A stretch of 42,608 bases of DNA from Escherichia phage phiKT. A program made the translations under genes and the position numbers. The notes below the pieces were generated by a model. It worked only from the letters and a program-made list of their open reading frames with translations. It was not told the origin of the DNA and did not search any database. Below, piece after piece: positions 14,494-42,608 of the stretch. The stretch lies in sequence record JN882298, one strand, 5' to 3'. Position 1 is the first letter of the stretch. Every line of letters starts with the position of its first letter.

Positions 14494-14533
14494 GGGTATT
14501 CGTTAAATATGGCTTGAAGCCTTGATATATGGG

Positions 14534-14560: not shown

Positions 14561-14576
14561 TCTGGAGGGTGTTAAA

Positions 14577-15330: not shown

Positions 15331-15340
15331 GAGGTTCCCA

Positions 15341-15943: not shown

Positions 15944-15944
15944 T

Positions 15945-16883: not shown

Positions 16884-16894
16884 CAGGAGCTATC

Positions 16895-18448: not shown

Positions 18449-18457
18449 GGGTAATTC

Positions 18458-19378: not shown

Positions 19379-19427
19379 CATACATCCCTCCCGTCCTGCC
19401 GTAATCTTTGCTTAGAAGGAAACATAA

Positions 19428-20411: not shown

Positions 20412-20418
20412 TACAACT

Positions 20419-20446
20419 AGCCCTCACTTCGGTGGGGGCTATTTTT
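20419..20446 (+). terminator. Rho-independent terminator after the major capsid gene (T-phi-like)
   Basis: 9-bp stem agccctcac/gtgggggct with ttcg tetraloop followed by attttt. Confidence 0.75.
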
Positions 20447-20471
20447 CCTAAAGTATTCAGAGGAACTTTTC

Positions 20472-21086: not shown

Positions 21087-21089
21087 TCT

Positions 21090-23720: not shown

Positions 23721-23722
23721 CT

Positions 23723-24550: not shown

Positions 24551-24559
24551 TGAGGCTAT

Positions 24560-26869: not shown

Positions 26870-26888
26870 TAACACATAGGAACCTCCG

Positions 26889-29800: not shown

Positions 29801-31091
29801 CCCTACGAAAACCATCCCGGCTTGGCAGCAAATCGTCAACGAAGTTTACCAGCGCCCTACTGCCATTGACGCTGGTGGTAATCTCTCCACTTCTGCTCGT
29901 TTTATTCGTCAGTATACTGGCGTCCGTCTTCTTGGCGGCGTAGGCTTTGCGCAGATGGCAGAACTGTCTAACACCATCGCTCACTTGGGCGTAGGTACGT
30001 TTATGAAGTTCCTCCCATCCGTTCCGCGTCTACTGAAAGAGACAAAGATGCTCAAGGCTGGTCAGATACCAGAGAACAGTGTTATGTGGTCTGTAGACTC
30101 CATAGCAGGTTCTCCGTTAGGTGTAGAGCAGTTCCAGATGGTAATGCCACAGGTTATTGATGAGGGTCTGTCCATTGTTGACCAGCGTTCATTCAATACT
30201 GTGATGCGTGCTATGGGTGGTGCTCAGTTGCTGCACAACAAGTTCTCCTTCATGCGTGCTGTAACGGCGGTGGAGCAGCGTTTCGTTGGTGATGAAATCG
30301 TCAAAAAGGCTATGCGCTATATGCGTGATGGTACGGATGACGTGGCTTTACGTGAGATGGGTATCACACCAGAACTGGCGGCTAAGTTCCGTGCAGAGAT
30401 GGGGAACATTGCCGAGTTCACTGAGAGCGGTCACCTGAAGGCGTTGAACCTCTACCATATGAAGGATATGGATGCTGTGGCGGAGTTCATTACGGCGGTA
30501 CGTCGTGGGACCGGGCAAATCATTCAGGATACCTTCCCCGGCGAGACTGGTAAGTGGATGCGTTCTGAGATTGGTCAGTTGCTGATGCAGTTCCGTAAGT
30601 TCCCTTCCGTAGCCATTGAGAAGCAGTACATGCGTCAGTACGGTAAGTTTGGGTTCACCAAGGCTCTGGGTGGCACATTGGCTGCTATGGGTATTGGCAC
30701 CTTACTTTACTACGGTCGTGCTATGGTTGCTGCCTCCTTGCTCGGAGAGAGTGAGCGTGAGAAGTTCTTAGAAACCCGTCTGTCCCCAGCATCCGTAGCG
30801 GGAGGGGCGTTGATGTACGTATCCAACTTGGGTATGCTCAACGACTTCATGCAGCTTGGTAGTGGTGTCGGGAACATGCTGGACGACTCTATGGACTTAG
30901 GCTGGACCCACGGACGCGGTATCCCGGCACAAGGTATCGGTGGGGTAATCCCATCCCTTGGTACGCTGAGCGATACCTACAACCTGACTCAACAGCCTTC
31001 TGTGAACGGTGCGTTGAAACTACTCCCATTCACAAACTTACCTATGGTTCTTCCGGTAATCAATGCAATCAAGCATTCGGATGACGACTAA
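26889..31091 (+). CDS. Internal virion protein C with N-terminal lytic transglycosylase domain
   Basis: 1400 aa; N-terminal SLT-like motifs (WQVESGGG ... GAVGHMQIMP); position and size as T7 gp16. Confidence 0.8.
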   Translation: MNYTELRGKTSDEIFEAVAKDTGVPTQLLKNMWQVESGGGQNMKSPAGAVGHMQIMPRELGVMRKTYGEDLDPMNLADSVFMAGKMLKENMQHFGNIPDAVSAYNGGWTKSKWSNPETSAYTPKVLAGTGITFDAQGTPHVEQPYTTSRAQIDSVRPEPVVQAKTYLNSVEKNAIEQQMYNKQLQGTDTNEVVNEAVQLSFNPEAAFGLADSLSTTPPATSYDSADQAIALDVQASVKEATRIANTTAGDAFSAGLQLYTLSGTAMEAMANTTADIMDKRQQVDREWIRKYEAEREQMIKGLSPYAVTQLDQAINAQEAKAIVDRDKRDQVAQQTLNDSGHPILWGLAAGILDPAGWVVGGGVGKAFMLGKSVSMAARMGKLAAGNAAGNVAVTGAMDLLGGQITPDDYIHAAAFGLATGAALGAFSRGDRAAIQQAAADMHEAAAARTQTFVERAAKEHYKMYAGVDPFEATDPNAIVQLHRGNTDPSNGPVWWTTDRAKAAGDGDVDSIWVRASDIQTKGVAGPNGPDEVVFQTDPRSFAVGGPSAEDLAQTAAKMSEREVMDVVDQVLTQPTAESKVFQPRDIDPVETGRIQQQYSLDSVADEHRLSSINSLYKSAEDFLAANKDKLRHMAIANQKRRTISDTLGWRSAGNELITDDNPLAKILGMVVAEDAAGVSGVRGVTVAIKSRLLNNHVNLNIERGIHENYTAWLKDKGVGRVKGALETYTTGKNITEFYAQVAAEMRNRANPMFVSTAPRSVQRAANVLEDGFQRMGDLQRKAKTLGHEFIPTSSRGYLPQQLNGKAFAALSGAEKRQVQQEFIRQATRDFGWDTEFASKKVAEYMNRAEDAATPAGRMNPSAGKDLMGVLMEELDNPNLAPDQYMQILERLRSGAAKHTSKRLDWDLNATIRMDNGDMIPLSSLYNNDVLSLYKGYANRVSGDVAFAHVGIYGDRDIRMITEALQRSKVGDPTKTIPAWQQIVNEVYQRPTAIDAGGNLSTSARFIRQYTGVRLLGGVGFAQMAELSNTIAHLGVGTFMKFLPSVPRLLKETKMLKAGQIPENSVMWSVDSIAGSPLGVEQFQMVMPQVIDEGLSIVDQRSFNTVMRAMGGAQLLHNKFSFMRAVTAVEQRFVGDEIVKKAMRYMRDGTDDVALREMGITPELAAKFRAEMGNIAEFTESGHLKALNLYHMKDMDAVAEFITAVRRGTGQIIQDTFPGETGKWMRSEIGQLLMQFRKFPSVAIEKQYMRQYGKFGFTKALGGTLAAMGIGTLLYYGRAMVAASLLGESEREKFLETRLSPASVAGGALMYVSNLGMLNDFMQLGSGVGNMLDDSMDLGWTHGRGIPAQGIGGVIPSLGTLSDTYNLTQQPSVNGALKLLPFTNLPMVLPVINAIKHSDDD

Positions 31092-31093
31092 AT

Positions 31094-31122
31094 GGTGGGC
31101 TTCGGCCCACCTCTATTTTATT
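31094..31122 (+). terminator. Rho-independent terminator/attenuator before the tail fiber gene
   Basis: 7-bp stem ggtgggc/gcccacc with ttcg loop followed by tctattttatt. Confidence 0.6.
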
Positions 31123-31132
31123 GGAGATTTTG

Positions 31133-33916
31133 ATGGCTATTACGTTTTATGCTACCAACAACTTCACTGGTGATGGTACTACCGTAAACTGGAATATTAA
31201 CTTCGCAGACGGTTACATCGACACCACCGACGTGAAGGCGCGGTATCTGGATAATACCGGGAGCTACGTTGACATCGCTATTTCAAGCGTGGCAGGAAAC
31301 GTAGTAACCATTTCCCCGGCTGTGGCGGACGGTCAGGAGTTCCAAATCTATCGTGATACAGAGAAGCGGTTCCCGCTGGTGGACTTCTCTGACGGTGCAA
31401 TCCTCAACGAGACTAACCTTGACACGCTGGCTACCCAGGCTGTGATGGTATCCGCTGAGGCATTCGACCAATCTAACAACGGTGTACGTATTGCTGGTGA
31501 TTCCTTGACTATCGCGCAAGGTATCGACGCCAAGGCACAGCTGGCTCTGGACAACTCCGAGGCTGCTGTAGCTACAGCGAACGGTATCGACGGTAAAGCG
31601 CAGACGGCATTGAATACCGCCGCCGCCGCTGTCGCCACGGCTAATGCTGCCACATCTACTGCTGCTGGTGCTGTATCTACGGCCAACACCGCACTGTCTA
31701 CTGCCAACGATGCCGCCGATGACGCAGCTACCGCTGTCACTACCGCTAACGCCGCTGTGACTACGGCCAATGCTGCAACCACTACGGCCAACGCCGCTAG
31801 TGCTGCCGCCTCTGCTGCAACGACTACTGCGAACAATGCTGCAAACGACGCTGCTACTGCTGTGTCTACTGCGAATACGGCCTTGTCTACTGCGAACACC
31901 GCATCTACCAACGCCTCTACCGCTGTGTCCACGGCTAACGCCGCTAAGGCTACTGCTGAGGGTATCGAGGCTAAAGCGGATTCTGCTTTGGCAGCTTCTG
32001 CTAACGCTGTGACCACAGCTAACGCAGCTGAGGCTACGGCTAATGCTATCGACGGTAAGGCTACGGACGCACTAAACACTGCTGATGCCGCTGAGGCTAC
32101 GGCTAATACTGCCGCTGCTACTGCGAGTTCGGCTGCTGCTGACGCCAGTACCGCTTTGAGCACAGTTACTGCTGCTGACACAAAGGCACAGACTGCTCTG
32201 GATAATATCGCGTCTCTGGATGCGGCCACCATGAAGAAAGCAGCTAACCTGTCTGATATTGCGGATAAGGCGGCTGCATGGCTTAACGTCCGTCCAATTG
32301 GCTCCACGCCATTGGCAGGCGACCCGGTAGGTGACTACGATGCTGTTACTAAGCGTTGGGTAGAGAACCTGATTAACACAGGTACTGTTGGTCCGACCAT
32401 GAATGGTGTGATGAACTACGGCGTTGGTGATTTTCATCTTCGTGATAGTCGCGCATACATTCAGCCGTATGAGGTTGTATCCGACGGTCAATTACTGAAC
32501 CGCGCTGATTGGCCTGAACTTTGGTCTTATGCGCAAATGTTGTCGCCCATCACCGATGCAGACTGGCTTGCTGACCCGCAAAAGCGCGGCAAGTATTCAC
32601 TAGGTAACGGCGCAACAACATTCCGCGTACCGGACCGCAACGGGGTTCAGGCAGGTTCAATAGCTGCATTGTTTGGCCGTGGTGATGGCGGGGTGTCATC
32701 TAGTGATGGGACAATTCTTGACAGTGCTGCACCAAACATTACAGGCTCATTTGGCCGATTGGTTTACGCGTCAACAGGCACTATTTATGAAGGAAACACA
32801 GGGACAGGTGCCTTCTCTGCTTTCTCACCACAAGCAAAATATAAAAAGATGTCAGACCTATCTTCAATTGATGCTCAGGCAGCGGAATATCCTTCTGGGT
32901 ATGAATTCTTCGCATCAAATTCAAGCCCGGTCTATGGTAGAGGTTCAACAGAAGTCCGACCCAAAGCATTCACTGGTGTTTGGGTGATTCGCGCATCTGG
33001 TGGATTTGTTGCTGCGAATACCCTGTGGAGTGTTATTAATGGCGATGCTACTAAACCCGCTAACAACACAAGTGTTAACGGTGGAGAGATTCAGTCTGAA
33101 TACCGTATTGGTACTCAGGTTGAAGGTAAAACATCTCTGCGATTTGTCGGTACTATCGGTCAGGCTTATGCTGCGCGCCTGAACGTATCAAATAACTCAA
33201 ATACTAATGCCTTTATCTACGATTTCGATGAGTATGGTCGGGTTAACTTCGGCAAACCGGGTGGTGTGATCAAATCTGGTGATATTACTCTGGATATGGC
33301 ATCCAACGGCGATTTCTACGTTACCACAACCCGTTTACGTGTAGAACACCCTACCTCTGGTGGTCAGACTATGGGGATATCCACTCAAGGTGGGGCCAAC
33401 CGTGGTGCTGATCAGGGGTGGTTTGAGCACTGGGGTAACTCCTATGGCGGTGGTTCTGACAAATCTCGTGCAACTGTTGTTGAACTTAAGATTGGTACTG
33501 GTTATGCGTGGTACAGTCAGAAACTAGCGAGTGGCGTATATGAAACCAGATTTGCAAGTGCAATCTATGCAACTGCATTCACTCAAAACTCTGATGAACG
33601 TATCAAGGAAAACATCGAGCGTATTAGCGATCCGTTGGAAAAGATGAAGCAAATTAAAGGTGTTTCATGGAATTTTAAAACGGTTGGTAATGCAAAAGGT
33701 TACGGCTTTATCGCACAGGATGTGGAAAGGGTACTCCCTGAAGCTGTAAGTGTCGGAGGTGGTGAACTGGAACTGACTGACGGTACTAAGGTATCCGATG
33801 TTAAATCGGTAAACACCAGCGGTGTGGCTGCTGCACTCCACCACGAAGCTATCCTAGCTTTGATGGATAAGGTTGAGGCTCTGGAAGCACGCATTGCAGA
33901 ACTAACTTCTCAGTAA
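31133..33916 (+). CDS. Tail fiber protein (T7 gp17-like anchor, Ala/Thr heptad stalk, collar-type receptor-binding region, C-terminal intramolecular chaperone)
   Basis: Track ORF 31121..33916; ATG at 31133 with GGAG RBS; N-terminus (QIYRDTEKRFPLVDFSDGAILNE) resembles the T7 gp17 anchor; tail-collar-like motif (GNGATTFRVPDRNG); last 108 aa (SDERIKENIERISD...) resemble the S74 chaperone domain. Confidence 0.8.
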   Translation: MAITFYATNNFTGDGTTVNWNINFADGYIDTTDVKARYLDNTGSYVDIAISSVAGNVVTISPAVADGQEFQIYRDTEKRFPLVDFSDGAILNETNLDTLATQAVMVSAEAFDQSNNGVRIAGDSLTIAQGIDAKAQLALDNSEAAVATANGIDGKAQTALNTAAAAVATANAATSTAAGAVSTANTALSTANDAADDAATAVTTANAAVTTANAATTTANAASAAASAATTTANNAANDAATAVSTANTALSTANTASTNASTAVSTANAAKATAEGIEAKADSALAASANAVTTANAAEATANAIDGKATDALNTADAAEATANTAAATASSAAADASTALSTVTAADTKAQTALDNIASLDAATMKKAANLSDIADKAAAWLNVRPIGSTPLAGDPVGDYDAVTKRWVENLINTGTVGPTMNGVMNYGVGDFHLRDSRAYIQPYEVVSDGQLLNRADWPELWSYAQMLSPITDADWLADPQKRGKYSLGNGATTFRVPDRNGVQAGSIAALFGRGDGGVSSSDGTILDSAAPNITGSFGRLVYASTGTIYEGNTGTGAFSAFSPQAKYKKMSDLSSIDAQAAEYPSGYEFFASNSSPVYGRGSTEVRPKAFTGVWVIRASGGFVAANTLWSVINGDATKPANNTSVNGGEIQSEYRIGTQVEGKTSLRFVGTIGQAYAARLNVSNNSNTNAFIYDFDEYGRVNFGKPGGVIKSGDITLDMASNGDFYVTTTRLRVEHPTSGGQTMGISTQGGANRGADQGWFEHWGNSYGGGSDKSRATVVELKIGTGYAWYSQKLASGVYETRFASAIYATAFTQNSDERIKENIERISDPLEKMKQIKGVSWNFKTVGNAKGYGFIAQDVERVLPEAVSVGGGELELTDGTKVSDVKSVNTSGVAAALHHEAILALMDKVEALEARIAELTSQ
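31510..32280 (+). repeat. Heptad-coded Ala/Thr repeat tract inside the tail fiber gene
   Basis: Protein shows more than 13 consecutive heptads of the form [ST]TAN.A. plus longer repeated units (ATANGIDGKAQTALNTA-like), from imperfect 21-bp DNA repeats. Confidence 0.7.
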
Positions 33917-33925
33917 GGAGAGCAG

Positions 33926-34297
33926 ATGTCCGACTTCGAAGAAGAGGATGTCACACAGGAAGAGAACGGGTCTTCGGACCTGTTCAAACCCTTAGAGACT
34001 ATCCCCGGCGCTACCGCCAACCGGGACCAGATGGCAGAGCTACACCAGCTTATCTGCATCGCCCTGTCCGCACGTATCCGGGCAGGTATCTGGTCCTCCG
34101 GCGATATTGCCGCAGCTACAAAGTTCCTGAAGGACAACAACGTCACTGCCGATGTTGGCGACAACAAGGCACTCCAGAAACTCCGCGATGAGATGGAGAC
34201 TAAGCAGAAGGCACGTCGTGAAGAACGGACGTATCTCTCTGAGCAGGAACTCGTCAAACTCGCAACGGAAGAACTGAATAACGAGATATGGCACTAA
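33926..34297 (+). CDS. Terminase small subunit
   Basis: 123 aa acidic protein immediately upstream of, and overlapping, the terminase large subunit. Confidence 0.55.
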   Translation: MSDFEEEDVTQEENGSSDLFKPLETIPGATANRDQMAELHQLICIALSARIRAGIWSSGDIAAATKFLKDNNVTADVGDNKALQKLRDEMETKQKARREERTYLSEQELVKLATEELNNEIWH

Positions 34298-36093
34298 GAG
34301 AATCAGCAGAAAGAGAAGAACAACGGCTACTTGAACTCGCAGCACTGCGGGACATGTACCCCACGTTCCTACCGTTTCTGATTGATTTCATGGTGATGCT
34401 CGGATTCTTCGTCACACCGGTACAGAAGCTCATTGCTCAATTCCTTGAGTACGGGCCTCTGTATCGGATGGTGCAGGCCCAGCGTGGTCAGGCGAAGACT
34501 ACCATCACAGCCGCATATGCAATCTGGCGACTTATCCACGATACCAACCTTGCCGTGTTGATCGTCTCGGCAGGGGGCAAGCAGGCGAACGAGATTTCAA
34601 CTCTCATCGTCCGCTCGTTCAAAACGTGGGATAGGCTGGCCTGCATGTGTCCTGACGCCTCTATGGGCGACCGTGAGTCAGTCGAAGCATTCGACGTTCA
34701 CTACAACTTAAAGAGGCTGAATAAATCTCCATCCGTGGCCTGTACTGGTATCACGGGTAACTTGCAGGGTAAACGTGCGGGTCTGCTTATCGCGGACGAC
34801 GTTGAGTCCCAGAAGAACTCCCTGACTGCGGTCATGCGTGAGAACCTCCTGAACCTGACTCGTGACTTTACCTCAATATGCTCCACCGGGGATATTATCT
34901 ACCTCGGTACACCACAGACTACAGAATCAATTTATAACACCTTGCCGGGGCGTGGCTTTACTGTCCGCATCTGGCCGGGACGTTTCCCTAACGCAGAACA
35001 GGTGGAAGCCTACGGCGACCAGCTATGCCCTGTCTTTAGGATGAAGATTGCTTCACGCCCTGACCTGACTACAGGCTACGGGCCGGATGGGCTTCAGGGT
35101 GCTCCGGTTGACCCGGTAATCCTTGGTGAAGCCTTCCTGAACAAGAAAGAGATTGACCAAGGGACTGCATACTTCCAGTTGCAGCACATGCTTCAGACGC
35201 GCCTGATGGATGCTATGCGCAAGCCATTACACGCAGAGAAGCTGATTGTGGCCCAACTGCCGAAGCGGGACGGTCTGTTCCCTATCACCATTACGCGAGA
35301 AATCTCTGTACAAGCCTACATGCGCCGAAACGTCCTGAGCAAGCCTCTGGTATTCGGTGTGCCCGGTAGCGTGTCTAAGGACGTCGCTACGCTTCAGGGC
35401 GTATGCTTCTACATCGACCCCGCTGGTGGTGGTAAGAACGCGGATGAAACTGCATTCGCTTGTACCGGGTTCCTGAACTCCAATATCTTCTTGCTGGATT
35501 GGGGCGGCTTACCGGGCGGATATGCCCCGGATGTTATGACCGCTCTCGCCCAACGTGTGTTTGAAGTGCGGCCCAATGTTGTCAAAATCGAAAAGAACTT
35601 CGGTTACGGCGTTCCGCGAAGTATGGTTGCCGTACCTCTGGGCCATTTTGATAAAGCTGGTGTTAACCGTCCCGGCGTAGAGGACGATATGGTACACGGC
35701 CAGAAGGAGAAGCGAATCATTGATACGCTTGAGCCTGTAATGGGTCGTGGCTCGCTCATTGTTGACGAGCGTCTCATCAAGGAAGACGAAGACCAGACCA
35801 TGCGGTACAGCGCACAAATGCGTGTGACGTACTCCGGGTTCCTACAGATGGTTAATATCTCCTACGACAAAGATGCGTTGGTGCATGATGACCGACTGGA
35901 TGCTTTGGAAGGAGCGGTTCGTCATTGGCAGGATTGGCTGGCCAAGAACCAAGAGAAGGCCATTCAGGCTCAACGGAAACGTGAGTTCGAAGAGTGGCAG
36001 AAAGACCCGATGATGAAGAAGCGTTGTCAGTCCGTGAAGGAATACAATGCTGGTCGTCGTGGTAAAACCATGTTTGATAAGAGAAAACGCTAA
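34288..36093 (+). CDS. Terminase large subunit
   Basis: 601 aa; ATPase P-loop-like segment (QRGQAKTT) and C-terminal nuclease-type acidic motifs; position as T7 gp19. Confidence 0.85.
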   Translation: MALRESAEREEQRLLELAALRDMYPTFLPFLIDFMVMLGFFVTPVQKLIAQFLEYGPLYRMVQAQRGQAKTTITAAYAIWRLIHDTNLAVLIVSAGGKQANEISTLIVRSFKTWDRLACMCPDASMGDRESVEAFDVHYNLKRLNKSPSVACTGITGNLQGKRAGLLIADDVESQKNSLTAVMRENLLNLTRDFTSICSTGDIIYLGTPQTTESIYNTLPGRGFTVRIWPGRFPNAEQVEAYGDQLCPVFRMKIASRPDLTTGYGPDGLQGAPVDPVILGEAFLNKKEIDQGTAYFQLQHMLQTRLMDAMRKPLHAEKLIVAQLPKRDGLFPITITREISVQAYMRRNVLSKPLVFGVPGSVSKDVATLQGVCFYIDPAGGGKNADETAFACTGFLNSNIFLLDWGGLPGGYAPDVMTALAQRVFEVRPNVVKIEKNFGYGVPRSMVAVPLGHFDKAGVNRPGVEDDMVHGQKEKRIIDTLEPVMGRGSLIVDERLIKEDEDQTMRYSAQMRVTYSGFLQMVNISYDKDALVHDDRLDALEGAVRHWQDWLAKNQEKAIQAQRKREFEEWQKDPMMKKRCQSVKEYNAGRRGKTMFDKRKR

Positions 36094-36329
36094 TGACTAT
36101 TGCTGCACAACTCCCAGACCCGAAGCTCGACGTTAAGGGCGACCGACTGCGTTTCCTGTTGGCCGCTTGTATCAGCGAGTGTAATATCCAAGCAGACAAC
36201 GGTGCGTATGATAAAGGCACCAGCTTCAAAGCCCTGCTTACTGCCGCTGCTGCACTCGTGAAGGTAGCTCCGGTAGAACCTGAAGACCCGGAAGACCCTG
36301 AAGACCCTGAAGACCCTGAAAACCCGTAA
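36093..36329 (+). CDS. Small hypothetical protein with C-terminal PEDPEDPEDPEDPENP repeat
   Basis: TAATG overlap with the terminase stop; C-terminus encoded by five tandem 9-bp units. Confidence 0.4.
   Translation: MTIAAQLPDPKLDVKGDRLRFLLAACISECNIQADNGAYDKGTSFKALLTAAAALVKVAPVEPEDPEDPEDPEDPENP
36283..36327. repeat. 5 x 9-bp tandem repeat (gaagaccc[g/t])
   Basis: Tandem units read directly in the sequence; encodes the (PED)n tail of the 36093..36329 ORF. Confidence 0.85.
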
Positions 36330-36372
36330 GAATAATACAATTGGCCAAGGACGGCTATTGAGGAACCTATTT

Positions 36373-36660
36373 ATGCGTATCGACGATATCTGCTCACCCG
36401 GTTTTGTACCTAACTCCCACCGTCTTCGTCAGGAGACTGTCCGGGCCATTGCTTTCTGTGAAACCATAGGAAGCGCTGAGAAGGCCGTAGAGCTACAGAA
36501 ATACTTTCGTGAGGCTATCGAATACCTTGACCGAGAAATTGTCTCCAGCGGCTTGCCAGAGAGCGAGAAGCCTATTGTGGATGCTGATGCTGTGTCACCA
36601 TTCGATGAGGAAGAAGTTGTGGCCGAGCCGAAACCTAAAGCCAAAGGAGGCAAGAAGTGA
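36373..36660 (+). CDS. Hypothetical acidic protein upstream of the endolysin
   Basis: Track ORF 36358..36660; ATG at 36373 with GAGGAA RBS; no transmembrane segment seen. Confidence 0.45.
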   Translation: MRIDDICSPGFVPNSHRLRQETVRAIAFCETIGSAEKAVELQKYFREAIEYLDREIVSSGLPESEKPIVDADAVSPFDEEEVVAEPKPKAKGGKK

Positions 36661-37109
36661 ATCTGACCGCAGCGGAGAAGTTAGTTCGACATTTTGAAGG
36701 TCTGAAGTTAGAAGCGTACCTGTGCCCTGCTGGTAAGTGGACTATCGGGTACGGACAGACCAAGGGTATTAAGGAAGGTATGGTGTGGACCAAGGCTCAG
36801 GCCGAAGCAGATATGTCTGCCACTGTCCGACGCTTTGCCGAAGAAGTACGTCAACTGGTCCGCAAGGATACGACCGACGCTGAACTAAGCGCATTCACTT
36901 CTCTGGCCTATAACATCGGTACTCCAAACTTTAAGACGTCCTCTGCTCTGCGTTGGCATAATGCCCGTGAGTCCGCGTCCAAGGTGTGCGCTGGTATCCG
37001 TATGTGGAACAAGGCCACCGTCAATGGTAAGAAGATTATCCTGAAGGGTCTGGTACGTCGCCGAGAGGCTGAATGCTCCGTATACACAACTGGAGACTTT
37101 AATGAGTAA
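36657..37109 (+). CDS. Endolysin, phage lysozyme (GH24 T4-lysozyme-like muramidase)
   Basis: N-terminus MNLTAAEKLVRHFEGLKLEAYLCPAGKWTIGYGQT aligns with the T4 lysozyme catalytic Glu/Asp/Thr region; GTG start overlapping the upstream stop. Confidence 0.85.
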   Translation: MNLTAAEKLVRHFEGLKLEAYLCPAGKWTIGYGQTKGIKEGMVWTKAQAEADMSATVRRFAEEVRQLVRKDTTDAELSAFTSLAYNIGTPNFKTSSALRWHNARESASKVCAGIRMWNKATVNGKKIILKGLVRRREAECSVYTTGDFNE

Positions 37110-37272
37110 ATTCAAGAAATATCTGGGTGCCGCATGGGATTTCACCAAGGAACATGGTGTGACTATCCTGCGTGGTGTGGCTGTCCTCCTTGTAGGTCGT
37201 AAGGTTGGTCGCGTTGCCAACCAGTCCGCCGATGTACTTGATACGGTCATCAAAGGGACTAAGAAGAATTAA
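37102..37272 (+). CDS. 56-aa small membrane protein (possible holin/antiholin-type lysis accessory)
   Basis: ATG overlapping the endolysin end; one hydrophobic segment (GVTILRGVAVLLVG); below the ORF-track cut-off. Confidence 0.35.
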   Translation: MSKFKKYLGAAWDFTKEHGVTILRGVAVLLVGRKVGRVANQSADVLDTVIKGTKKN

Positions 37273-37281
37273 AGGATAGCC

Positions 37282-37665
37282 ATGTTCGAAGGCACCGGGA
37301 ACTACGGTTCCCTTGTGACCACCCTCCTTACGGGAGCAGTGGCGGCTCAAACCTCTTATCAGGTATCCCGTATAGTCACACATGATTCTCTGTTATTAGT
37401 TGGCATCCTCTGCGTCATCGGTATCGTGGTAGGTCTGGGCCATGCTCTCTCAAGCAAGTCCCCTCTCCCATTCCGTCGTATCGTAGGCAAGGTGCTTATG
37501 TCTACTGGCGTGGCCGTTACAGCCGCTGCCGTCTATTACTTCAAACCAAGTACCGACCCGTTAGTCGTCATTGCCATTGGCGCTGGGTTAAGCGTCATGG
37601 GTTCTGGCTGGCTGGAAGAGTTCGTCCGGAACAGAACAGGAACCAAGAAGGATGATGGTAGTTAA
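37282..37665 (+). CDS. Holin-like multi-pass membrane protein
   Basis: 127 aa with about three hydrophobic segments and a charged C-terminal tail; adjacent to the endolysin. Confidence 0.5.
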   Translation: MFEGTGNYGSLVTTLLTGAVAAQTSYQVSRIVTHDSLLLVGILCVIGIVVGLGHALSSKSPLPFRRIVGKVLMSTGVAVTAAAVYYFKPSTDPLVVIAIGAGLSVMGSGWLEEFVRNRTGTKKDDGS

Positions 37666-37720
37666 AAGCTCTCAGAAGCTCTACAACGCTCTCAAGGACG
37701 AGAGCAATACGATGTTACCA

Positions 37721-37795
37721 CCTGACCCTGATTAGATGCCTGATGACTTCATTAGCACGTTTTAAGTTGATTCCTGATTAGATGATTAGCTAGTC
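37721..37795. repeat. Direct repeats of cctgattagatg and related attag units
   Basis: cctgattagatg at ~37727..37738 and ~37773..37784, with additional attag copies between. Confidence 0.6.
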
Positions 37796-37810
37796 CACAG
37801 AGGGCAGTCC

Positions 37811-37854
37811 TAAAATTTGATATAATTTTGTGAGGGGGCAGTCCAACACAAATG
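37811..37854. repeat. Direct repeat (a)gggcagtcc flanking an AT-rich palindrome
   Basis: agggcagtcc at ~37811..37820 and gggcagtcc at ~37846..37854 flank taaaatttgatataatttt. Confidence 0.5.
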
Positions 37855-37886
37855 AGGTCGCGTTTCCCCCGTAGGCCCGGCCTTCT

Positions 37887-37958
37887 GGATGGCTGAATGG
37901 CTGGATGGATGGATGGCTGGACGGCTAGACGTTTAGACGGCTAAATGGCCAAATGACC
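37887..37958. repeat. Tandem array of nine imperfect 8-bp units (consensus ggatggct)
   Basis: ggatggct gaatggct ggatggat ggatggct ggacggct agacgttt agacggct aaatggcc aaatgacc read in strict 8-nt register. Confidence 0.8.
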
Positions 37959-38017
37959 GTAAAAAAGGGCCGTGTGCACTGATAGGGTCAATCGGGCTGT
38001 AGGTCGCGCCAACCGGA

Positions 38018-38044
38018 GTTTCCGCACATTACTTTATAAGGGAG
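38018..38044 (+). promoter_or_regulatory. Phage RNAP promoter-like motif, copy 2
   Basis: gtttccgcacattactttataagggag; matches 14534..14560 except for one substitution and one indel. Confidence 0.5.
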
Positions 38045-38134
38045 CTTGTAAGGTGTCTGGCGGCGATCCGTCTGACGACGGGAGAAGGGAAGAGACGTGG
38101 GGTATCTATCTTTTTGTGATTAGTGTTAGTTGTG

Positions 38135-38165
38135 TATCTATCTATCTATGTATGTATGTATATCC
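38135..38165. repeat. Tetranucleotide microsatellite (tatc)3(tatg)3
   Basis: tatctatctatctatgtatgtatgtata read directly. Confidence 0.8.
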
Positions 38166-38209
38166 GGCTATCCTTTATCTGCGCTGCGACGGGCCAGCTA
38201 TCGCTTTCC

Positions 38210-38239
38210 TTGTCTTCGCTACGATAAGGAAGCTATAAT
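38210..38239 (+). promoter_or_regulatory. Sigma70-type promoter candidate driving the 38279 mini-operon
   Basis: -35 TTGTCT, 18-nt spacer, -10 TATAAT (perfect); ~40 nt upstream of a strong-RBS ATG. Confidence 0.5.
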
Positions 38240-38278
38240 AGGGATTGTATTATTGCTCTTTAATAATGAGGTGAGATT

Positions 38279-38482
38279 ATGGCTATACGTAATTGGATGG
38301 CGGTTATGGCTATTGTGGATAGTGTGGGGATTGAAGCGGCGTTAGCCTTGCCATACGTTCCGCCGGATTCTAACACTATGCCGGGCCGTGCCGAACGTTA
38401 TGCAATTGAGTACAACATACAACGGGGGAAGTATGGCGAGACCATGCCGGAAGTATCGACGTCGTGCACTCATCGGGATTGA
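38279..38482 (+). CDS. Hypothetical small protein (first gene of the left-end mini-operon)
   Basis: GAGGTGA RBS before the ATG; 67 aa; atypical codon usage; overlaps the next ORF. Confidence 0.35.
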   Translation: MAIRNWMAVMAIVDSVGIEAALALPYVPPDSNTMPGRAERYAIEYNIQRGKYGETMPEVSTSCTHRD

Positions 38483-38873
38483 TGTATCGGGGTATCATCC
38501 GCCGGCTGTAGTCCGGGACTGGTTAAGGGATACTTTAAGGGATGACTCCAAGGGACTAGCCGATCAGCTTATTTGTAAACCGTGGGCTGTATGGTTAGTG
38601 TGGGCGCATGATGAAATCACTAGTAAGCGGGTTCGTCTTCTCTGCTGTGTAGGGGAGCGACAAGCGCTATACATAATGGATTATGCGGCCCGGCTTGATG
38701 GGTATCTGTGCCGACTGTATCAATCCGACGGTGACGTGATTGATATTAGTCATCTGTCCGAGTGTCAATCGGTGCATAACTGGACCGGATACTGGCGACA
38801 CGTCAACGGCGAAAGTAAGCCGATGACGATTAGTGACGATGGATTGAGAAAGCTGCGGGAGCTGATAGCATGA
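38433..38873 (+). CDS. Hypothetical protein (second gene of the left-end mini-operon)
   Basis: Track ORF 38388..38873; ATG at 38433 after a GGGGG stretch; stop is followed directly by a terminator hairpin; atypical codon usage (cgg, agt, tta, ata). Confidence 0.4.
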   Translation: MARPCRKYRRRALIGIDVSGYHPPAVVRDWLRDTLRDDSKGLADQLICKPWAVWLVWAHDEITSKRVRLLCCVGERQALYIMDYAARLDGYLCRLYQSDGDVIDISHLSECQSVHNWTGYWRHVNGESKPMTISDDGLRKLRELIA

Positions 38874-38877
38874 CGAT

Positions 38878-38914
38878 AAGGGGCCGGGAGTGTATCCTTG
38901 CCCCTTTCTTTTTT
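38878..38914 (+). terminator. Rho-independent terminator after the 38433..38873 ORF
   Basis: Stem aaggggc(cggga)/(tcctt)gcccctt followed by tcttttttg. Confidence 0.6.
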
Positions 38915-39079
38915 GTCCTGGACAAACCGCTACATTCTGGATGTATGTTGTACGCATAATCTCTTGCGTTCTCCTGATCGGGCTTATGCACTCATGGGTA
39001 TACGTTGGCTTGTCTTACGTGTGATTAGGTGTCTGGTGAGAACGTGGGAGATTATTTTCGATTATTTTTAAATATTCGC

Positions 39080-39108
39080 TTGCACTATCCGAAAACGTCG
39101 CGTATAAC
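39080..39108 (+). promoter_or_regulatory. Sigma70-type early promoter candidate
   Basis: -35 TTGCAC, 17-nt spacer, -10 TATAAC; AT-rich UP-like element upstream (ttttcgattatttttaaatatt). Confidence 0.5.
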
Positions 39109-39368
39109 TATCTACATCAGGACGGGCAAGGCAATACGGACTGAAGGAGGAGGCGCAACGGAAGGCGCGACACGGCGGGAGTGATACAAGGACGCGCCAA
39201 GGGGGAACGGATAGGAACTGCGAAGCCTGCCGGATACCCGCTAAGGAAAGCAACGTTTGCCGGAGTATGCAGACACGGCAAACAAATAAAAGTAGTTCGG
39301 GAGGCAAGGATAGCCCACGTAGTGGCTGCCGATAGCGTATGAAGTATCGGATAACCGAACGAAAGCGA

Positions 39369-39397
39369 TTGACACGTTAAGCAATATGCCGTAATTT
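39369..39397 (+). promoter_or_regulatory. Second sigma70-type early promoter candidate (weaker -10)
   Basis: -35 TTGACA (perfect), 17-nt spacer, -10 TAATTT. Confidence 0.3.
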
Positions 39398-39755
39398 AGA
39401 TAACAAGCAGTACAGCAACATTACAGCAAACTAGAATAGTTTGAGTCGCATTGAGTGCGGATAGCTGACCTGACAGCGATATGATTCAGGGGGGCCGGAG
39501 GTTAGATAGGACGTCGCCAATAAGCCTGATAAACAAAACACTGTTTATCTAATGCTACTCATTGAGCGGCATTATATAAGCAACAAGCGCGGGGGAGTCC
39601 TACCAGCACAACGCGCTTTATAAATCAAGGCCACACGACGTCGTAAAATGACGGGAAAGGTCAGGAGTGTAGGCGCGGCGGTCGCCCGTGTAGTATCAAA
39701 GATACAGCGACCAACTAAACCAAATCACTTAAACGCAACGTAAACGAGGCGCACA

Positions 39756-40250
39756 ATGAAAGTATTAATTTCTGCATTCCGTAAAGAAAACGACCTGCTG
39801 ACTCATATCAACAATCACGCAGAACTGTACGACCGCATTGCAGCGTTGGGCCTGACACCACAGCCCGTCGATGGCGTGTGGAAAGGTGTCAGCGAATTTT
39901 CTTACATGGTACACGGTGTAACCGCAGCGATGGTAAAAGCGTTTTATGCAATGGCCCGCGACTACAATCAGGAGGCTATCTTGCTTGTTGCTGATGATAA
40001 CCGTGCCGCAGTAGTACCGACCGATGGCCCGGCAATGGCCCCGATGATTGACGTCGGCGACTGGAGGGAAGTCAGTAAAGAGATCGCCATACAGTTCGAC
40101 GGGTACACCAAGACACGCGACGGCCGCTATTTTGTCGCAGCCACTCGTGAGCAGTTTGGCCTCGCCACTCGTCGGCTGTTAGCCACACAGCCGGGCGTGA
40201 TCGCAGCTAACGAGTATGCCGCACGTGTAAACGCAGTGGGAGGATTATAA
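39756..40250 (+). CDS. First early protein of the main early operon, function unknown
   Basis: GAGG RBS; 164 aa; first ORF after ~650 nt of leader. Confidence 0.6.
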   Translation: MKVLISAFRKENDLLTHINNHAELYDRIAALGLTPQPVDGVWKGVSEFSYMVHGVTAAMVKAFYAMARDYNQEAILLVADDNRAAVVPTDGPAMAPMIDVGDWREVSKEIAIQFDGYTKTRDGRYFVAATREQFGLATRRLLATQPGVIAANEYAARVNAVGGL

Positions 40251-40251
40251 A

Positions 40252-40500
40252 ATGCGCAAACTTAGTGAAATTGTACATCATACCCACGTATTCTATAACA
40301 GCAAGGGTTATCTGTGGATAACCCTGAAGGAAGTGCGACCTGACGGGCGTCGTCGTGTGGTAGTACGTAAAATGAACAGCAAATACTTCAGTAATTGGTC
40401 ATTGGATACAGTACGCATTAATAACGAGACTTTTCAGATTGACTCACAGATTGACCTACAACCAACGGCAAGCCATTCCGCACCATATTTCTCCAACTGA
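40252..40500 (+). CDS. Early hypothetical protein (basic)
   Basis: GGGAGGA RBS; ATG one nt after the upstream stop; 82 aa. Confidence 0.5.
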   Translation: MRKLSEIVHHTHVFYNSKGYLWITLKEVRPDGRRRVVVRKMNSKYFSNWSLDTVRINNETFQIDSQIDLQPTASHSAPYFSN

Positions 40501-40515
40501 ATCCGGGCCTATGCC
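40497..40515. repeat. 19-nt motif ctgaatccgggcctatgcc, copy 1 (followed by a hairpin)
   Basis: Identical 19-mer recurs at 40881..40899; both copies lie at or just after a stop codon. Confidence 0.7.
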
Positions 40516-40622
40516 GCGCACTCATGGGCGGCAAATGCCTTGTCTTATAGTGTACCAGTGGATACCTACACAGTGGCGTAGGTATCAGCAGATACATTAA
40601 TCAAAAACACAGAGGTAACACC

Positions 40623-40865
40623 ATGCAAACTATTATCACCAAATACCACGGCGCTACCAGCACACGCGGGGGCCGTATCGTTGCCAAATACTGGAACGGT
40701 AAAAAAACGGTATCATACGACCACAGCCTGAATGCAGACGCTAACCATAAGGCCGCAGCCGATGCACTCATCGCCGACCTGAAGGCGCGTACAGGCAGCG
40801 ACTGGTCCATCATTGCAGCTGGTTGCCTACCAGACCACACGGGGTACGCGTTTATCATCGAGTAA
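40623..40865 (+). CDS. Early hypothetical protein
   Basis: GAGGT RBS; 80 aa. Confidence 0.5.
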   Translation: MQTIITKYHGATSTRGGRIVAKYWNGKKTVSYDHSLNADANHKAAADALIADLKARTGSDWSIIAAGCLPDHTGYAFIIE

Positions 40866-40880
40866 GATTTACACAGTCAC

Positions 40881-40899
40881 CTGAATCCGGGCCTATGCC
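40881..40899. repeat. 19-nt motif ctgaatccgggcctatgcc, copy 2
   Basis: Exact match to 40497..40515. Confidence 0.7.
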
Positions 40900-40936
40900 A
40901 CGTTGATTCGTGGGAAACACAGCAGACAGGTACATT

Positions 40937-41170
40937 ATGATGGCATATAAAACTCAGGTCCGCGCCTGCACGAATTTAACCACAGGCCGCGAAAGTTTTT
41001 ATCAACGGCATGTTAACGGCTTTGGTAATCCCTATTGGGAGAAAATAGGCCGGGCATGGTATTTGGAGTTAATGGCGAAAGCTGACCGCAGGAATACCAT
41101 CGTTGAGCGCCACGACGCTAACAGCCGTAGCGTGGACCGCGAACTATTTTTTAAGGTGTCACCAGTATGA
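40937..41170 (+). CDS. Early hypothetical protein
   Basis: Track ORF 40910..41170; internal ATG at 40937 with AGGT 5 nt upstream. Confidence 0.45.
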   Translation: MMAYKTQVRACTNLTTGRESFYQRHVNGFGNPYWEKIGRAWYLELMAKADRRNTIVERHDANSRSVDRELFFKVSPV

Positions 41171-41280
41171 ATACAATCACGTCCGGCCTTGCACTCATCG
41201 GCGCGATTATCGGCGTCGCTGTGTTCAACGCCTTGCCAATGATTATTGGCGTGGCGGTCCTCAGTTGGTGGCTGTCATAA
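41167..41280 (+). CDS. 37-aa hydrophobic micropeptide (single predicted transmembrane helix)
   Basis: ATGA overlap with the upstream stop; MNTITSGLALIGAIIGVAVFNALPMIIGVAVLSWWLS. Confidence 0.35.
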   Translation: MNTITSGLALIGAIIGVAVFNALPMIIGVAVLSWWLS

Positions 41281-41345
41281 TCCGCGCACTCATAGCCACA
41301 CTGTGCGTTTCCCAATCGCATAAATCATTTTTGAGATACACACAT

Positions 41346-41525
41346 ATGAATATCAAAGAATCCGTAGCCACAGAACGCGCCGCCGCCATACAGTACGCGC
41401 ACGATAACCTATCACCGGATGCCTACTGGCTGTTCTGCGACCGCCTTCGAGAAACAGAAGACCTATCACCGGATAATATCCGCGCCATTATTGTCGCAGT
41501 AGCGCAGGAGGTGTCTAATGTTTGA
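41346..41525 (+). CDS. Early hypothetical small protein
   Basis: In-frame ATG within track ORF 41103..41525, after the micropeptide; weak RBS. Confidence 0.3.
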   Translation: MNIKESVATERAAAIQYAHDNLSPDAYWLFCDRLRETEDLSPDNIRAIIVAVAQEVSNV

Positions 41526-41763
41526 AGCAGCGAACGATGATCATTACAACGAGAAAACAGCGGTGGCAGAGGCACAGAAGCGCCAGCGGGATATAAATAT
41601 GGCCTACTATACACGCGTGCCGCCGTTTTACGTGTTCCAGTGTGGTACGGACGGAAACCAGTTTGGTTACGTCACCAAGTACGGCTATTGTGACGTTGGT
41701 TTTAATAGCTTCGCAGATGCCACAGAGGCGGCGGAGGAGTACACACAGAGGGTAGAGCTATGA
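41518..41763 (+). CDS. Early hypothetical protein
   Basis: Strong RBS (AGGAGG); 81 aa. Confidence 0.5.
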   Translation: MFEAANDDHYNEKTAVAEAQKRQRDINMAYYTRVPPFYVFQCGTDGNQFGYVTKYGYCDVGFNSFADATEAAEEYTQRVEL

Positions 41764-41948
41764 CACAACCAGTATACAACGTGTATCGGGGTACGGGCGT
41801 ATGCGTCCGGATGACATACCGGGCTGTTCCGGGGGCCACAGTGTCCCAATACCTCACTGACTCCGGTTGGCAGGATAGTTTAGTGACTGAACGCACTATT
41901 CGCGCCAGCCTCCCACTCGTGGCTAAAAACGTGAGGTTCAAGGCATGA
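41760..41948 (+). CDS. Early hypothetical protein
   Basis: ATGA overlap with the upstream gene; GAGGG RBS; 62 aa. Confidence 0.4.
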   Translation: MTQPVYNVYRGTGVCVRMTYRAVPGATVSQYLTDSGWQDSLVTERTIRASLPLVAKNVRFKA

Positions 41949-42280
41949 AAATCATTAATCCGTTACATCTCATCCAGTTCGTGGTGGTTTACTTGTACAC
42001 GTGGTACGCACTACGCAGTGCGCCGCGTGTAGAAGGCTTTAATGTCGGCTGGAGTAGTCCGCACGATGACTTTCAGGTGTACTATAACGCGCAGGTCAAC
42101 GTGTTAGGCGTAATCACACCAGCGCAGGACACTACATGGCAACCAGTCGGCTGGCGTGCGTGGTTCAACCTTGTCCGGGCATATGATGACCTGCTCGAAC
42201 AGACCACAGCGGCGTTCATTGAAGCGTATCTCCCAGACTTCGCAGATGACATCAACGAATCAGACACAGAAGGCAAATAA
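41945..42280 (+). CDS. Early hypothetical protein (hydrophobic N-terminus, acidic C-terminus)
   Basis: ATGA overlap with the upstream gene; 111 aa. Confidence 0.5.
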   Translation: MKIINPLHLIQFVVVYLYTWYALRSAPRVEGFNVGWSSPHDDFQVYYNAQVNVLGVITPAQDTTWQPVGWRAWFNLVRAYDDLLEQTTAAFIEAYLPDFADDINESDTEGK

Positions 42281-42282
42281 TT

Positions 42283-42608
42283 ATGACAAGCATCAATCCG
42301 GTAGACCTGACCACTTTAGGCGCACGAGTAACCGACCCGGCACAGTTGACCGAAGGCCGCTGGTATGCGGTACGCGTTAACTGTAGAGGCTATATCCCAC
42401 TGGTACACGCCAAATACTTGGGTAGGAAAGGTCGGTATTCACATGCGTTTGAGGTGTGCGATGAGGATCATCTCGCGTTAAAGCGTTCTCTGGGCCTCGC
42501 CAAGCGCATCCACCGCGACAACGGTAGTATCCACTCGGGGAAGATTGATGGCGGCGGTATCTGCGAGATATTCAAGTTTAAGCAGGTGGTGGATGGTCCC
42601 GTAAGCAC
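42283..42608 (+). CDS. Early hypothetical protein, 3'-truncated at the window edge
   Basis: ATG at 42283, open to the last base; frame is continuous with 2..427 if the sequence is circular. Confidence 0.45.
   Translation, partial: MTSINPVDLTTLGARVTDPAQLTEGRWYAVRVNCRGYIPLVHAKYLGRKGRYSHAFEVCDEDHLALKRSLGLAKRIHRDNGSIHSGKIDGGGICEIFKFKQVVDGPVS

Follow-up and report, generated by a model that had tools for sequence, protein, structure and literature searches.

An early gene block of Escherichia phage phiKT combines a predicted S-adenosylmethionine lyase, a clade-conserved core and variable cassettes

The class I region of phages T7 and T3 (genes 0.3-1.3) lies near the left genome end behind tandem sigma-70-type promoters, has an anti-restriction gene in first position and consists of numerous small, overlapping genes, some of which are separated by hairpins. 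In LUZ19 and phiKMV, the early ORFan regions are long series of small clade-specific genes before the primase/helicase. This is the same architecture as in the block of coliphage phiKT described here, although the host differs and we found no sequence similarity between the phiKMV-like regions and the phiKT block. In T3, gene 0.3 encodes the founding S-adenosylmethionine (SAM) lyase (structures 7OCK and 8BB1; Pfam PF23780) and comes first behind the host-type early promoters. SAM lyase counters type I restriction-modification and BREX (PMC7877911; bioRxiv 10.1101/2023.02.27.530186). The SAM-binding residues are a Gly, a cation-pi Tyr, a Glu (T3 E68/Svi3-3 E69) and a Gln (T3 Q94/Svi3-3 Q104) followed by an acidic residue (PMC7877911; bioRxiv 10.1101/2023.02.27.530186). 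T3 SAMase also contacts MetK through T4 and N9 in its N-terminal tail and through Q103, T104 and H105 in the beta4-beta5 loop (bioRxiv 10.1101/2023.02.27.530186).

Escherichia phage phiKT (Autographiviridae, Ermolevavirus) has a phiKMV-like gene order, and the window, that is, the whole 42,608-nt stretch that we analyzed (JN882298), is its complete genome in circularly permuted form. Because the gene order is phiKMV-like and not T7-like, the T7 class I boundaries are not directly transferable. An IMG/VR search returned PGT2 and Minorna as sole relatives, PGT2 being the nearest (93-95% nucleotide identity), and the block genes were compared with PGT2 and six metagenomic relatives (L-numbered contigs, e.g., L004, L005, L006, L013, L015 and L016). 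All features described below are on the plus strand. Between 39756 and 2105, a stretch that crosses the window junction, there are 17 ORFs with ATG starts. The initial annotation counted about 17 genes as well but closed the block at 1938, which drops a 55-aa gene and leaves 16. The tight packing and frequent overlap that it described are borne out. Coding density is 94%, well over that of shuffled sequence: ORFs of at least 55 aa span 4693 of 4958 nt versus 2148 +/- 522 nt in Markov shuffles (maximum 3693; n = 500). Of the gene junctions, seven are overlaps (125 nt in one case, 1-14 nt in the other six) and nine are gaps of 1-122 nt. The proper ribosome-binding sites claimed for the block hold for most ORFs, before which a motif scan found a Shine-Dalgarno-like motif, but not for a 34-aa ORF, which is preceded only by a GGGG run. 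Orthologues are nearly all intact in the seven related phage sequences, with pN/pS mostly 0.05-0.45, and purifying selection acts on nearly all block genes.

Some block genes occur in all relatives and others differ between them. From this gene content we delineate a clade-conserved core (peptides of 37 and 34 aa, proteins of 81, 62, 111, 103, 96, 108, 101 and 91 aa, and an SH3-like/coiled-coil protein) and a set of swappable cassettes (genes of 82, 80, 77, 59 and 55 aa). Database searches, proposed in the initial annotation as a way to refute its reading, gave a known family for the first gene, the SAM lyase, and no function-bearing match for 15 of the 17 genes (Pfam and PHROGs; NCBIfam and PADLOC for the first ten genes; PDB for six). 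Among the first ten proteins, neither NCBIfam nor the PADLOC defence-system models gave a match, and PDB sequence searches with six block proteins gave nothing significant. The Ocr model (PF08684) matched no block protein, although it picks up Ocr in both P1338 and a Kayfunavirus, and a tRNA scan and Rfam returned nothing. The label "ORFan" is misplaced for the 82-aa and 80-aa families, with 117 and 55 phage records, respectively; the other genes beyond the SAM lyase are clade-restricted. Unlike the T7/T3 class I region, the block has no kinase, ligase or Ocr homologue in Pfam, and beyond the SAM lyase its genes match none of the T7/T3 early-gene families there. Primase and helicase (2105-4193) follow directly. 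Also unlike T7/T3, the phage RNA polymerase gene (11893-14367) lies outside the block, ~12 kb downstream and, as in phiKMV, beyond the replication genes, and a class I/II boundary therefore cannot be drawn.

The early region begins not at 39756, as initially annotated, but at 38279, beside the inferred left genome end at ~37842. The PGT2 terminal repeat maps at 37842-38103 of phiKT, and the block starts ~1.9 kb from this end. A sigma-70-type promoter-like site (TTGTCT-18-TATAAT, 38210-38239; 10/12 consensus matches) precedes the first two early genes, both upstream of the block and both with no match in Pfam. The first encodes a 67-aa orthologue of PGT2 gp01 (38279-38482; 76-84% identity in five relatives) and the second a 146-aa protein (38433-38873; pN/pS 0.15-0.17) that is unannotated in PGT2 and called in L005, L013, L015 and L016. 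A terminator-like hairpin followed by a U-run lies 3' of the 146-aa gene (38876-38916; -19.3 kcal/mol, z = -3.8) and is kept in five relatives. A simple terminator/promoter scan of the region had missed it. Two further promoters are predicted closer to the block: P_A (TTGCAC-17-TATAAC, 39080-39108), whose hexamers and preceding AT-rich, UP-like tract are kept in 5/5 aligned leaders, and P_B (TTGACA-17-TAATTT, 39369-39397), kept in five relatives. The promoter hexamers and the ribosome-binding region persist even in relatives with a swapped first gene. These calls are consensus matches, and promoter-like sites across the wider region were no more numerous than in shuffles. A repeated CTTGTCTT motif was considered as a promoter element and rejected, its frequency being no higher than chance.

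Between the two promoters lies a structured noncoding leader element of ~95 nt (39196-39292) with no Rfam match. It is common to phiKT and unrelated coliphages, in which it precedes Ocr or SAM lyase genes, and it is the sole item in the block region that phiKT has in common with the phiKMV-like coliphage Minorna (Drulisvirus). It may represent a cis-acting RNA of a new, mobile type, carried along with Ocr or SAM lyase anti-restriction operons from one unrelated coliphage to another.

We consider it likely that the block is an early, pre-replicative operon comprising a SAM lyase followed by the clade core and cassettes. The early-class reading fits because of the left-end position, the two sigma-70-type promoters kept in five relatives and the location upstream of primase/helicase and RNA polymerase. 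In this scheme, host RNA polymerase would start at P_A and P_B, and transcription would proceed rightward through the 17 packed genes and on into that for primase. The SAM lyase would cleave SAM and so starve SAM-dependent defences (type I restriction-modification, BREX), the cassettes might be modules for counter-defence or host range, and the membrane peptides might target either the inner membrane or membrane proteins. The initial annotation placed the block in an early class of host-takeover and anti-defence proteins. Its early position and the SAM lyase agree with this, but sequence comparison points to anti-defence for that one gene only, and our results give no sign of host takeover or anti-defence for the other ~15. 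As a hunting ground for inhibitors, the region is a reasonable place to look, but it is an ordinary early accessory region and not a new kind of system; a predominance of genes with no known function is normal for such phages, and the present understanding of phage early regions is unchanged.

The initial annotation recognized no motif in any block gene. The first, at 39756-40250 (164 aa; pN/pS 0.06-0.13), does match a family, the Pfam S-AdoMet_lyase PF23780, with 86.5 bits (cutoff 28; E = 2e-24), phiKT residues 3-128 aligning with profile positions 1-132 of 133. We found 155 representative homologues, and a profile of 83 homologues matches T3 SAMase (7OCK/8BB1) with E = 2.6e-13 over T3 residues 12-149. 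A single-sequence search for solved structures gave no match, and the pairwise similarity to T3 SAMase was not significant. Residues G40, W42, E47 and Q72 align with T3 G55, Y57, E68 and Q94. Across the 83 family members, G40 and E47 are each conserved in 82 and Q72 in all 83; the W42 position is Tyr in 57 and Trp in 23, and the E73 position is Glu in 61 and Asp in 17. The Gly, aromatic, Glu and Gln-Glu ligand residues of T3 gene 0.3 are kept in phiKT, and Trp for the cation-pi Tyr appears to be a conservative departure. By homology, the enzyme should cleave SAM to methylthioadenosine and homoserine lactone.

The databases name this product otherwise: RefSeq calls it a SAM-dependent methyltransferase, and GenBank a tail tape measure protein. 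Both names are attached to the exact 164-aa protein and, like the phrog_2226 label, speak for such a role, but both are almost certainly wrong. RefSeq gives the same "methyltransferase" name to the founding SAM lyase, the product of T3 gene 0.3, and the name is therefore a propagated error. No methyltransferase family is matched in Pfam (E <= 0.1) or NCBIfam, a tape measure role is impossible for a 164-aa early protein, and the family profile aligns to the solved T3 SAMase, including the catalytic Glu and Gln. The SAM lyase assignment puts right the public records of both phiKT and PGT2 and predicts that the two phages evade type I restriction and BREX.

The phiKT SAM lyase differs from T3 SAMase in its 35-aa C-terminal extension, in Trp for Tyr, and in lacking the N-terminal tail and the MetK loop. 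Its start aligns with T3 residue 13, beyond the MetK-contacting tail, and the loop residues Q103/T104/H105 align with D80, D81 and N82. Because the MetK-binding residues are absent, the phiKT enzyme probably acts by SAM cleavage alone, and MetK inhibition, the second mechanism of T3, would not apply. The gene is missing from relative L016 and is therefore itself an accessory gene.

The core begins downstream with a 37-aa peptide (41167-41280), followed by an 81-aa acidic protein (41518-41763; pN/pS 0.10-0.23 in seven relatives) and a 62-aa basic protein (41760-41948) that is unannotated in PGT2 and has orthologues in relatives. The next product, of 111 aa (41945-42280), is hydrophobic at its N-terminus, rich in Trp in the middle and acidic at its tail, and it is nearly invariant in the clade. 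It is identical on contigs with pS of ~0.35 and retains 71-72% identity in L015 and L016. Because a word-indexed homologue search gave one 90% cluster only (mean column identity 98%), an alignment for fold prediction was not possible. The initial annotation had suggested structure prediction and fold search for each ORF; for this protein the AlphaFold2 model from the single sequence was unusable (pLDDT 44.6). The following gene, of 250 aa, runs over the window ends as a single unit (42283-42608 and 1-427), which the initial annotation had not recognized; its homologues are colinear across the junction. Its 3' part (1-427) carries an SH3-like cassette and a C-terminal coiled coil, as judged from a homologue model and fold matches. 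An AlphaFold2 model of P0194, the closest homologue of the same architecture (pLDDT 78.8), gave tandem SH3/KOW/Tudor-like matches, all generic, along with uncharacterized phage proteins. The 250-aa product is thus modelled as two SH3-like barrels and a coiled coil, and the second barrel is present in 0-3 copies among relatives.

A 103-aa protein (446-757) follows, with a signal-peptide-like N-terminal segment (..AGAMQAYA/S..) and two allelic types in the clade (36-39% versus 70-95% identity among relatives). Orthologue comparison supports a 96-aa helical protein (766-1056) whose Cys-rich tail overlaps the next gene by 125 nt. In this overlap the evidence favors the frame of the latter, which encodes a 108-aa protein (932-1258; pN/pS ~0.2) that is unannotated in PGT2 and called in L004, L006, L013 and L015. 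The core ends with two clade-restricted proteins flanking a 34-aa peptide (1552-1656): an acidic one of 101 aa (1260-1565), supported by orthologue comparison, and a strongly constrained one of 91 aa (1663-1938; 95-97% identity, pN/pS 0.05-0.13).

The 37-aa and 34-aa single-helix peptides predicted in the initial annotation are both encoded at the coordinates given there. The former has zero charged residues and GxxxG-type motifs, and no relatives outside the clade were found in the phage collection; the latter would have 36 aa with a start at 1546. About 15 genes, these two among them, seem absent from the public phiKT record, and the 34-aa ORF is also absent from that of PGT2. Together with the weak ribosome-binding site of the 34-aa ORF and its pN/pS of 0.15-0.48, which is based on only 6-9 substitutions per comparison, this could mean that the two ORFs are untranslated and conserved through an RNA-level or spacing constraint between flanking genes. 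Several pieces of evidence make this reading very unlikely: (i) Both ORFs are intact wherever relatives cover their position (37-aa, 7/7 at 86-97% identity; 34-aa, 4/4 at 85-94%). (ii) Variable sites by codon position number 6/1/11 in the 37-aa ORF (pN/pS 0.05-0.22), and no second position varies in the 34-aa ORF. (iii) All replacements are conservative hydrophobic swaps (I/V/L/M/F or G/A/S/T) that preserve the transmembrane helix. (iv) The ATG of the 37-aa ORF is retained despite wholly different upstream sequence between relatives. (v) Such hydrophobic ORFs are scarce: the six frames of the window contain 171 ORFs of 30-45 aa, only 3 with a GRAVY of at least 1.5, and the two peptides account for two of the three.

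The clade-core genes beside the primase could equally serve replication. One alternative to a largely counter-defence block is that the core (the 81-, 62-, 111-, 250-, 103-, 108-, 101- and 91-aa genes and the two peptides) functions in DNA replication or host shut-off, with only the cassettes and the SAM lyase in counter-defence. Core genes are found in every relative and are strongly constrained, for example the 111-aa gene and the 91-aa gene directly before the primase, while counter-defence genes are usually variable, as the phiKT cassettes are; moreover, phiKMV-like genomes have no border between early and replication genes. On the other hand, the core genes match no replication or nucleotide-metabolism family, and membrane or secreted proteins account for three of them, which is unusual among replication factors. 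We regard this alternative as possible but rather unlikely.

Membrane or secreted phage proteins of this type are exemplified by T4 Imm, T4 Sp and HK97 gp15. The two peptides and the 103-aa protein, with their predicted single-pass or secreted topology and early position, could act in superinfection exclusion or in the control of membrane physiology and lysis timing instead of intracellular anti-defence, and two divergent 103-aa alleles might be expected of a protein facing a variable envelope. We consider this unlikely, as no homology to exclusion proteins was found and lysis has a late cassette of its own, at 36657-37665 (bioRxiv 10.1101/515445). That cassette encodes gp28 disruptin (~37102-37272), a 56-aa cationic lysis peptide long labelled hypothetical (bioRxiv 10.1101/515445). 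Disruptin resembles the micropeptides as a small membrane-acting phiKT peptide, but it is late, cationic and amphipathic, whereas they are early, almost uncharged and fully hydrophobic single helices. Within the early operon that we favor, the 111-aa protein may combine with both peptides into a new kind of conserved, membrane-directed module, which could, for example, inhibit defence effectors of the inner membrane or the membrane machinery of the host. We regard both this module and the leader element as a new mobile RNA as unlikely.

With core and cassettes separated, inhibitor screens can draw on a short ranked list that comprises the 82-aa and 80-aa families, the 111-aa protein, the modular SH3-like protein and the two peptides. 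The 82-aa basic protein (40252-40500; phrog_10124) belongs to a family widespread in T7-like coliphages, and in a Kayfunavirus a homologue is encoded immediately before Ocr. By this guilt by association, an anti-defence role is weakly suggested. The neighboring Kayfunavirus "antirestriction protein" was considered as a SAM lyase and rejected, since it is Ocr. A pair of 25-nt direct repeats (40494-40518 and 40878-40902; 92% identity) brackets the cassette of the 80-aa accessory gene (40623-40865; phrog_3199), which is not in PGT2 and whose phage records are all labelled hypothetical. PGT2 homology breaks off within this interval, at 40533, and an irregular intergenic hairpin at 40548-40599 (-20.5 kcal/mol, z = -3.4) may be a site of RNA processing. 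Also not in PGT2 is a 77-aa basic accessory gene (40937-41170; 60-61% identity in L005 and L015, weak phrog_5293 match). The gene for a 59-aa acidic protein (41346-41525) is thinly supported because it is present in only one relative, PGT2. At the far end of the block, a 55-aa Cys/His-rich basic protein (1938-2105) had a sub-threshold match to DUF1660 (PF07874; 15.3 bits, cutoff 21.4, E = 0.03) over its N-terminal 28 residues only. Its gene is an insertion relative to PGT2, and the identical protein occurs in L013.

The early-gene run extends along the plus strand from 39756, across the joined window ends, to 2105, and contains 17 ATG-start ORFs at a coding density of 94%. Seven junctions between them are overlaps (six of 1–14 nt, one of 125 nt) and nine are gaps of 1–122 nt. 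Of the 4958 nt, 4693 lie within plus-strand ORFs of 55 aa or longer, compared with 2148 ± 522 nt in 500 first-order Markov shuffles, among which the maximum was 3693. Thus, the dense, overlapping block of small genes described in the initial annotation, which ended it at 1938, is real. The proper ribosome-binding sites ascribed to these genes were found for most of the 17, as Shine-Dalgarno-like motifs, but not for the 34-aa ORF, for which the scan gave no such motif and a GGGG run is the sole feature upstream.

For comparison we used Escherichia phage PGT2 and six metagenomic relatives, retrieved via two block proteins. The block ORFs are intact wherever a homologue is detectable and lies wholly within the sequenced locus, with the sole exception of the 111-aa gene in one metagenomic locus (L015). 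Substitutions among these relatives are mainly synonymous, with pN/pS values of 0.05–0.45 for most genes. A 125-nt overlap joins the 96-aa and 108-aa genes; both frames are open in all relatives, and substitutions within the overlap are mostly synonymous in the 108-aa frame. Comparative support is thin for the 59-aa gene, which is carried by phiKT and PGT2 only, with seven substitutions. The public phiKT record seems to annotate just two of the 17 genes (164 and 82 aa). Of the other 15 exact proteins, 12 are absent from a collection of 15 billion proteins, and three occur there, from metagenome assemblies only.

The first gene (164 aa, 39756–40250) had been described as lacking a recognisable motif, which does not hold: by Pfam and profile matches, its product belongs to the S-adenosylmethionine (SAM) lyase family. 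It matches Pfam PF23780 over the whole domain at 86.5 bits (cutoff 28). An exhaustive search returned 155 representative homologues, and a profile of 83 of them matches the solved T3 SAMase structures (7OCK, 8BB1) with E = 2.6e-13. Gly40, Trp42, Glu47 and Gln72-Glu73 align with T3 Gly55, Tyr57, Glu68 and Gln94. These sites, established as ligand-binding and catalytic in the T3 and Svi3-3 enzymes (PMC7877911; bioRxiv 10.1101/2023.02.27.530186), are near-invariant in the family, with Trp in place of Tyr in 23 of the 83 members. In the phiKT protein, the MetK-contacting residues of T3 are missing or altered, so the part of the T3 mechanism that works through MetK inhibition probably does not extend to it. 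Two database names for this gene, "tail tape measure protein" and "SAM-dependent methyltransferase", are errors; T3 gene 0.3 bears the same methyltransferase label in RefSeq.

The term ORFan also fails for the 82-aa gene (40252–40500, phrog_10124), with relatives in 117 phage records, mainly T7-like coliphages, and for the 80-aa gene (phrog_3199), with relatives in 55 records from very different phages, every one labelled hypothetical. In a Kayfunavirus, the relative of the 82-aa gene lies directly upstream of the anti-restriction gene Ocr. The 55-aa Cys/His-rich gene has only a sub-threshold match to DUF1660. For the remaining genes, searches of Pfam and PHROGs (all 17 genes), NCBIfam and PADLOC (the first ten) and the PDB (six) gave no match that points to a function. 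Within the phage collection, the 101-aa and 91-aa proteins occur in PGT2 only. The 111-aa protein forms one 90% cluster in a word-indexed homologue search, with 98% mean column identity; the identical protein occurs on contigs that are ~35% diverged at synonymous sites, these contigs having been chosen by protein identity, and it is 71–72% identical in two more distant relatives. The signal-peptide-bearing 103-aa protein (446–757, plus strand) exists as two alleles at the same position, 70–95% versus 36–39% identical in close relatives.

Wherever a relative's locus covers them, the 37-aa and 34-aa peptides, the 250-aa protein and the 81-, 62-, 111-, 103-, 96-, 108-, 101- and 91-aa genes are always present. 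Presence varies for the SAM lyase and the 82-, 80-, 77-, 59- and 55-aa genes, which are replaced by DUF7267, DUF7249, DUF8033, a T3 gene 1.05-like protein or HNH endonucleases. A 25-nt direct repeat (40494–40518 and 40878–40902) flanks the 80-aa gene. As regards position and class, the earlier reading of the block as an early anti-defence region stands; among individual genes it is supported for one only, and the rest is a normal early region specific to the clade of phiKT and these relatives.

Both micropeptides proposed initially are at 41167–41280 (37 aa) and 1552–1656 (34 aa, or 36 aa if the start is at 1546). The former has no charged residues and contains small-xxx-small motifs, and the latter has a single Lys at either end. 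Only three of the 171 six-frame ORFs of 30–45 aa in the window are comparably hydrophobic, and both micropeptides are among the three. The 37-aa gene is found in seven of seven relatives covering the site (86–97% identity) and the 34-aa gene in four of four (85–94%). Variable sites by codon position number 6/1/11 and 7/0/5, respectively, and all replacements are swaps within I/V/L/M/F or G/A/S/T. The ATG of the 37-aa ORF is retained despite unrelated upstream sequence among relatives. Taken together, these comparisons provide good evidence that both peptides are likely coding; no homologues beyond the clade were found in the phage collection.

The 250-aa ORF (42283..427) has homologues that are colinear across the window ends. 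In its product, an N-terminal domain is followed by a ~80-aa cassette and then by a C-terminal coiled coil. The number of cassettes differs among relatives, being zero (PGT2), one, two or three, and the cassettes fall into three or more sequence types. The closest homologue that shares this architecture was modelled with AlphaFold2 (pLDDT 78.8); the model has two small β-barrels and a long helix. Its fold matches are weak and generic, to tandem KOW/Tudor/Agenet/SH3-like domains and uncharacterised phage proteins. The model suggests a binding protein, with no target indicated by the fold.

We infer the transcription signals of the block from sequence. Two predicted sigma-70-type promoters (39080–39108 and 39369–39397) lie in the SAM lyase leader and are conserved in five relatives. 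Conservation extends to the ribosome-binding region of the first gene, including in relatives where another gene has taken its place. An irregular hairpin at 40548–40599 (z = −3.4) may serve as a processing site. Farther upstream, a promoter-like site (38210–38239) precedes two small genes (38279–38482 and 38433–38873), and a conserved hairpin followed by a U-run (38876–38916) closes this pair. The second of the two, a 146-aa Cys/Trp-rich plus-strand gene, is 84–90% identical among relatives (pN/pS ~0.16), has no family match and lacks annotation in the PGT2 record; together with the 67-aa gene that overlaps it, it makes up a mini-unit of its own, ending at the terminator-like hairpin.

A noncoding element at 39196–39292 (plus strand) lies within an insertion of ~190 nt (~39146–39340). 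It is 83–92% identical in unrelated coliphages, namely Minorna (Drulisvirus), vB_EcoS_P1338, and Carena and nasanit (Berlinvirus), in each case on the same strand and 230–460 nt upstream of a first early gene, whose product is Ocr or a SAM lyase, except in Minorna, where it is a hypothetical protein. Its consensus folds into hairpins with compensatory changes in 5 of 23 pairs and 99% of cells paired; slid controls gave 0–1 compensatory pairs. The element, which has no match in Rfam or E. coli genomes, may be a mobile structured leader RNA.

PGT2 (Autographiviridae, Ermolevavirus; 93–95% nucleotide identity) is the sole close relative in the phage collection, and its record opens with a 260-bp terminal repeat (PMC5773715). 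Both ends of that record map onto 37842–38103, and thus the window is a circular permutation; we infer a physical left genome end at ~37842, with the window's own ends inside the early region. The single-subunit RNA polymerase gene (11893–14367) lies downstream of the primase (2105–2923), helicase (2910–4193) and DNA polymerase genes, i.e., the gene order is phiKMV-like rather than that of T7. The primase and helicase genes overlap directly. In PGT2 (6645–9132) an HNH endonuclease gene separates them, and the metagenomic locus L013 carries several HNH genes across its early and replication regions, whereas phiKT has none at 2105–4193.

A 42-nt direct repeat (76% identical, plus strand) is a candidate promoter for the phage polymerase. 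One copy, at 14531–14572, comes just past the RNA polymerase gene and before the genes that follow it (14529 onward); the other, at 38015–38056, falls within the inferred terminal repeat. The lysis cassette (36657–37665, plus strand) comprises endolysin, the 56-aa gene 28 product (~37102–37272) and holin. The gene 28 product is a cationic outer-membrane "disruptin" (bioRxiv 10.1101/515445); the window copy has no Pfam match at E ≤ 0.001, although relatives do carry PF26810 (Phage_disruptin). In-frame repeat units with a 21-nt period occur at 31598–32131 (plus strand) in ORF 31121–33916, the counterpart of the PGT2 tail fibre gene, and 9-nt GAAGACCCT-like units at 36263–36325 (plus strand) are in frame in a late ORF downstream of the counterpart of the PGT2 large terminase.
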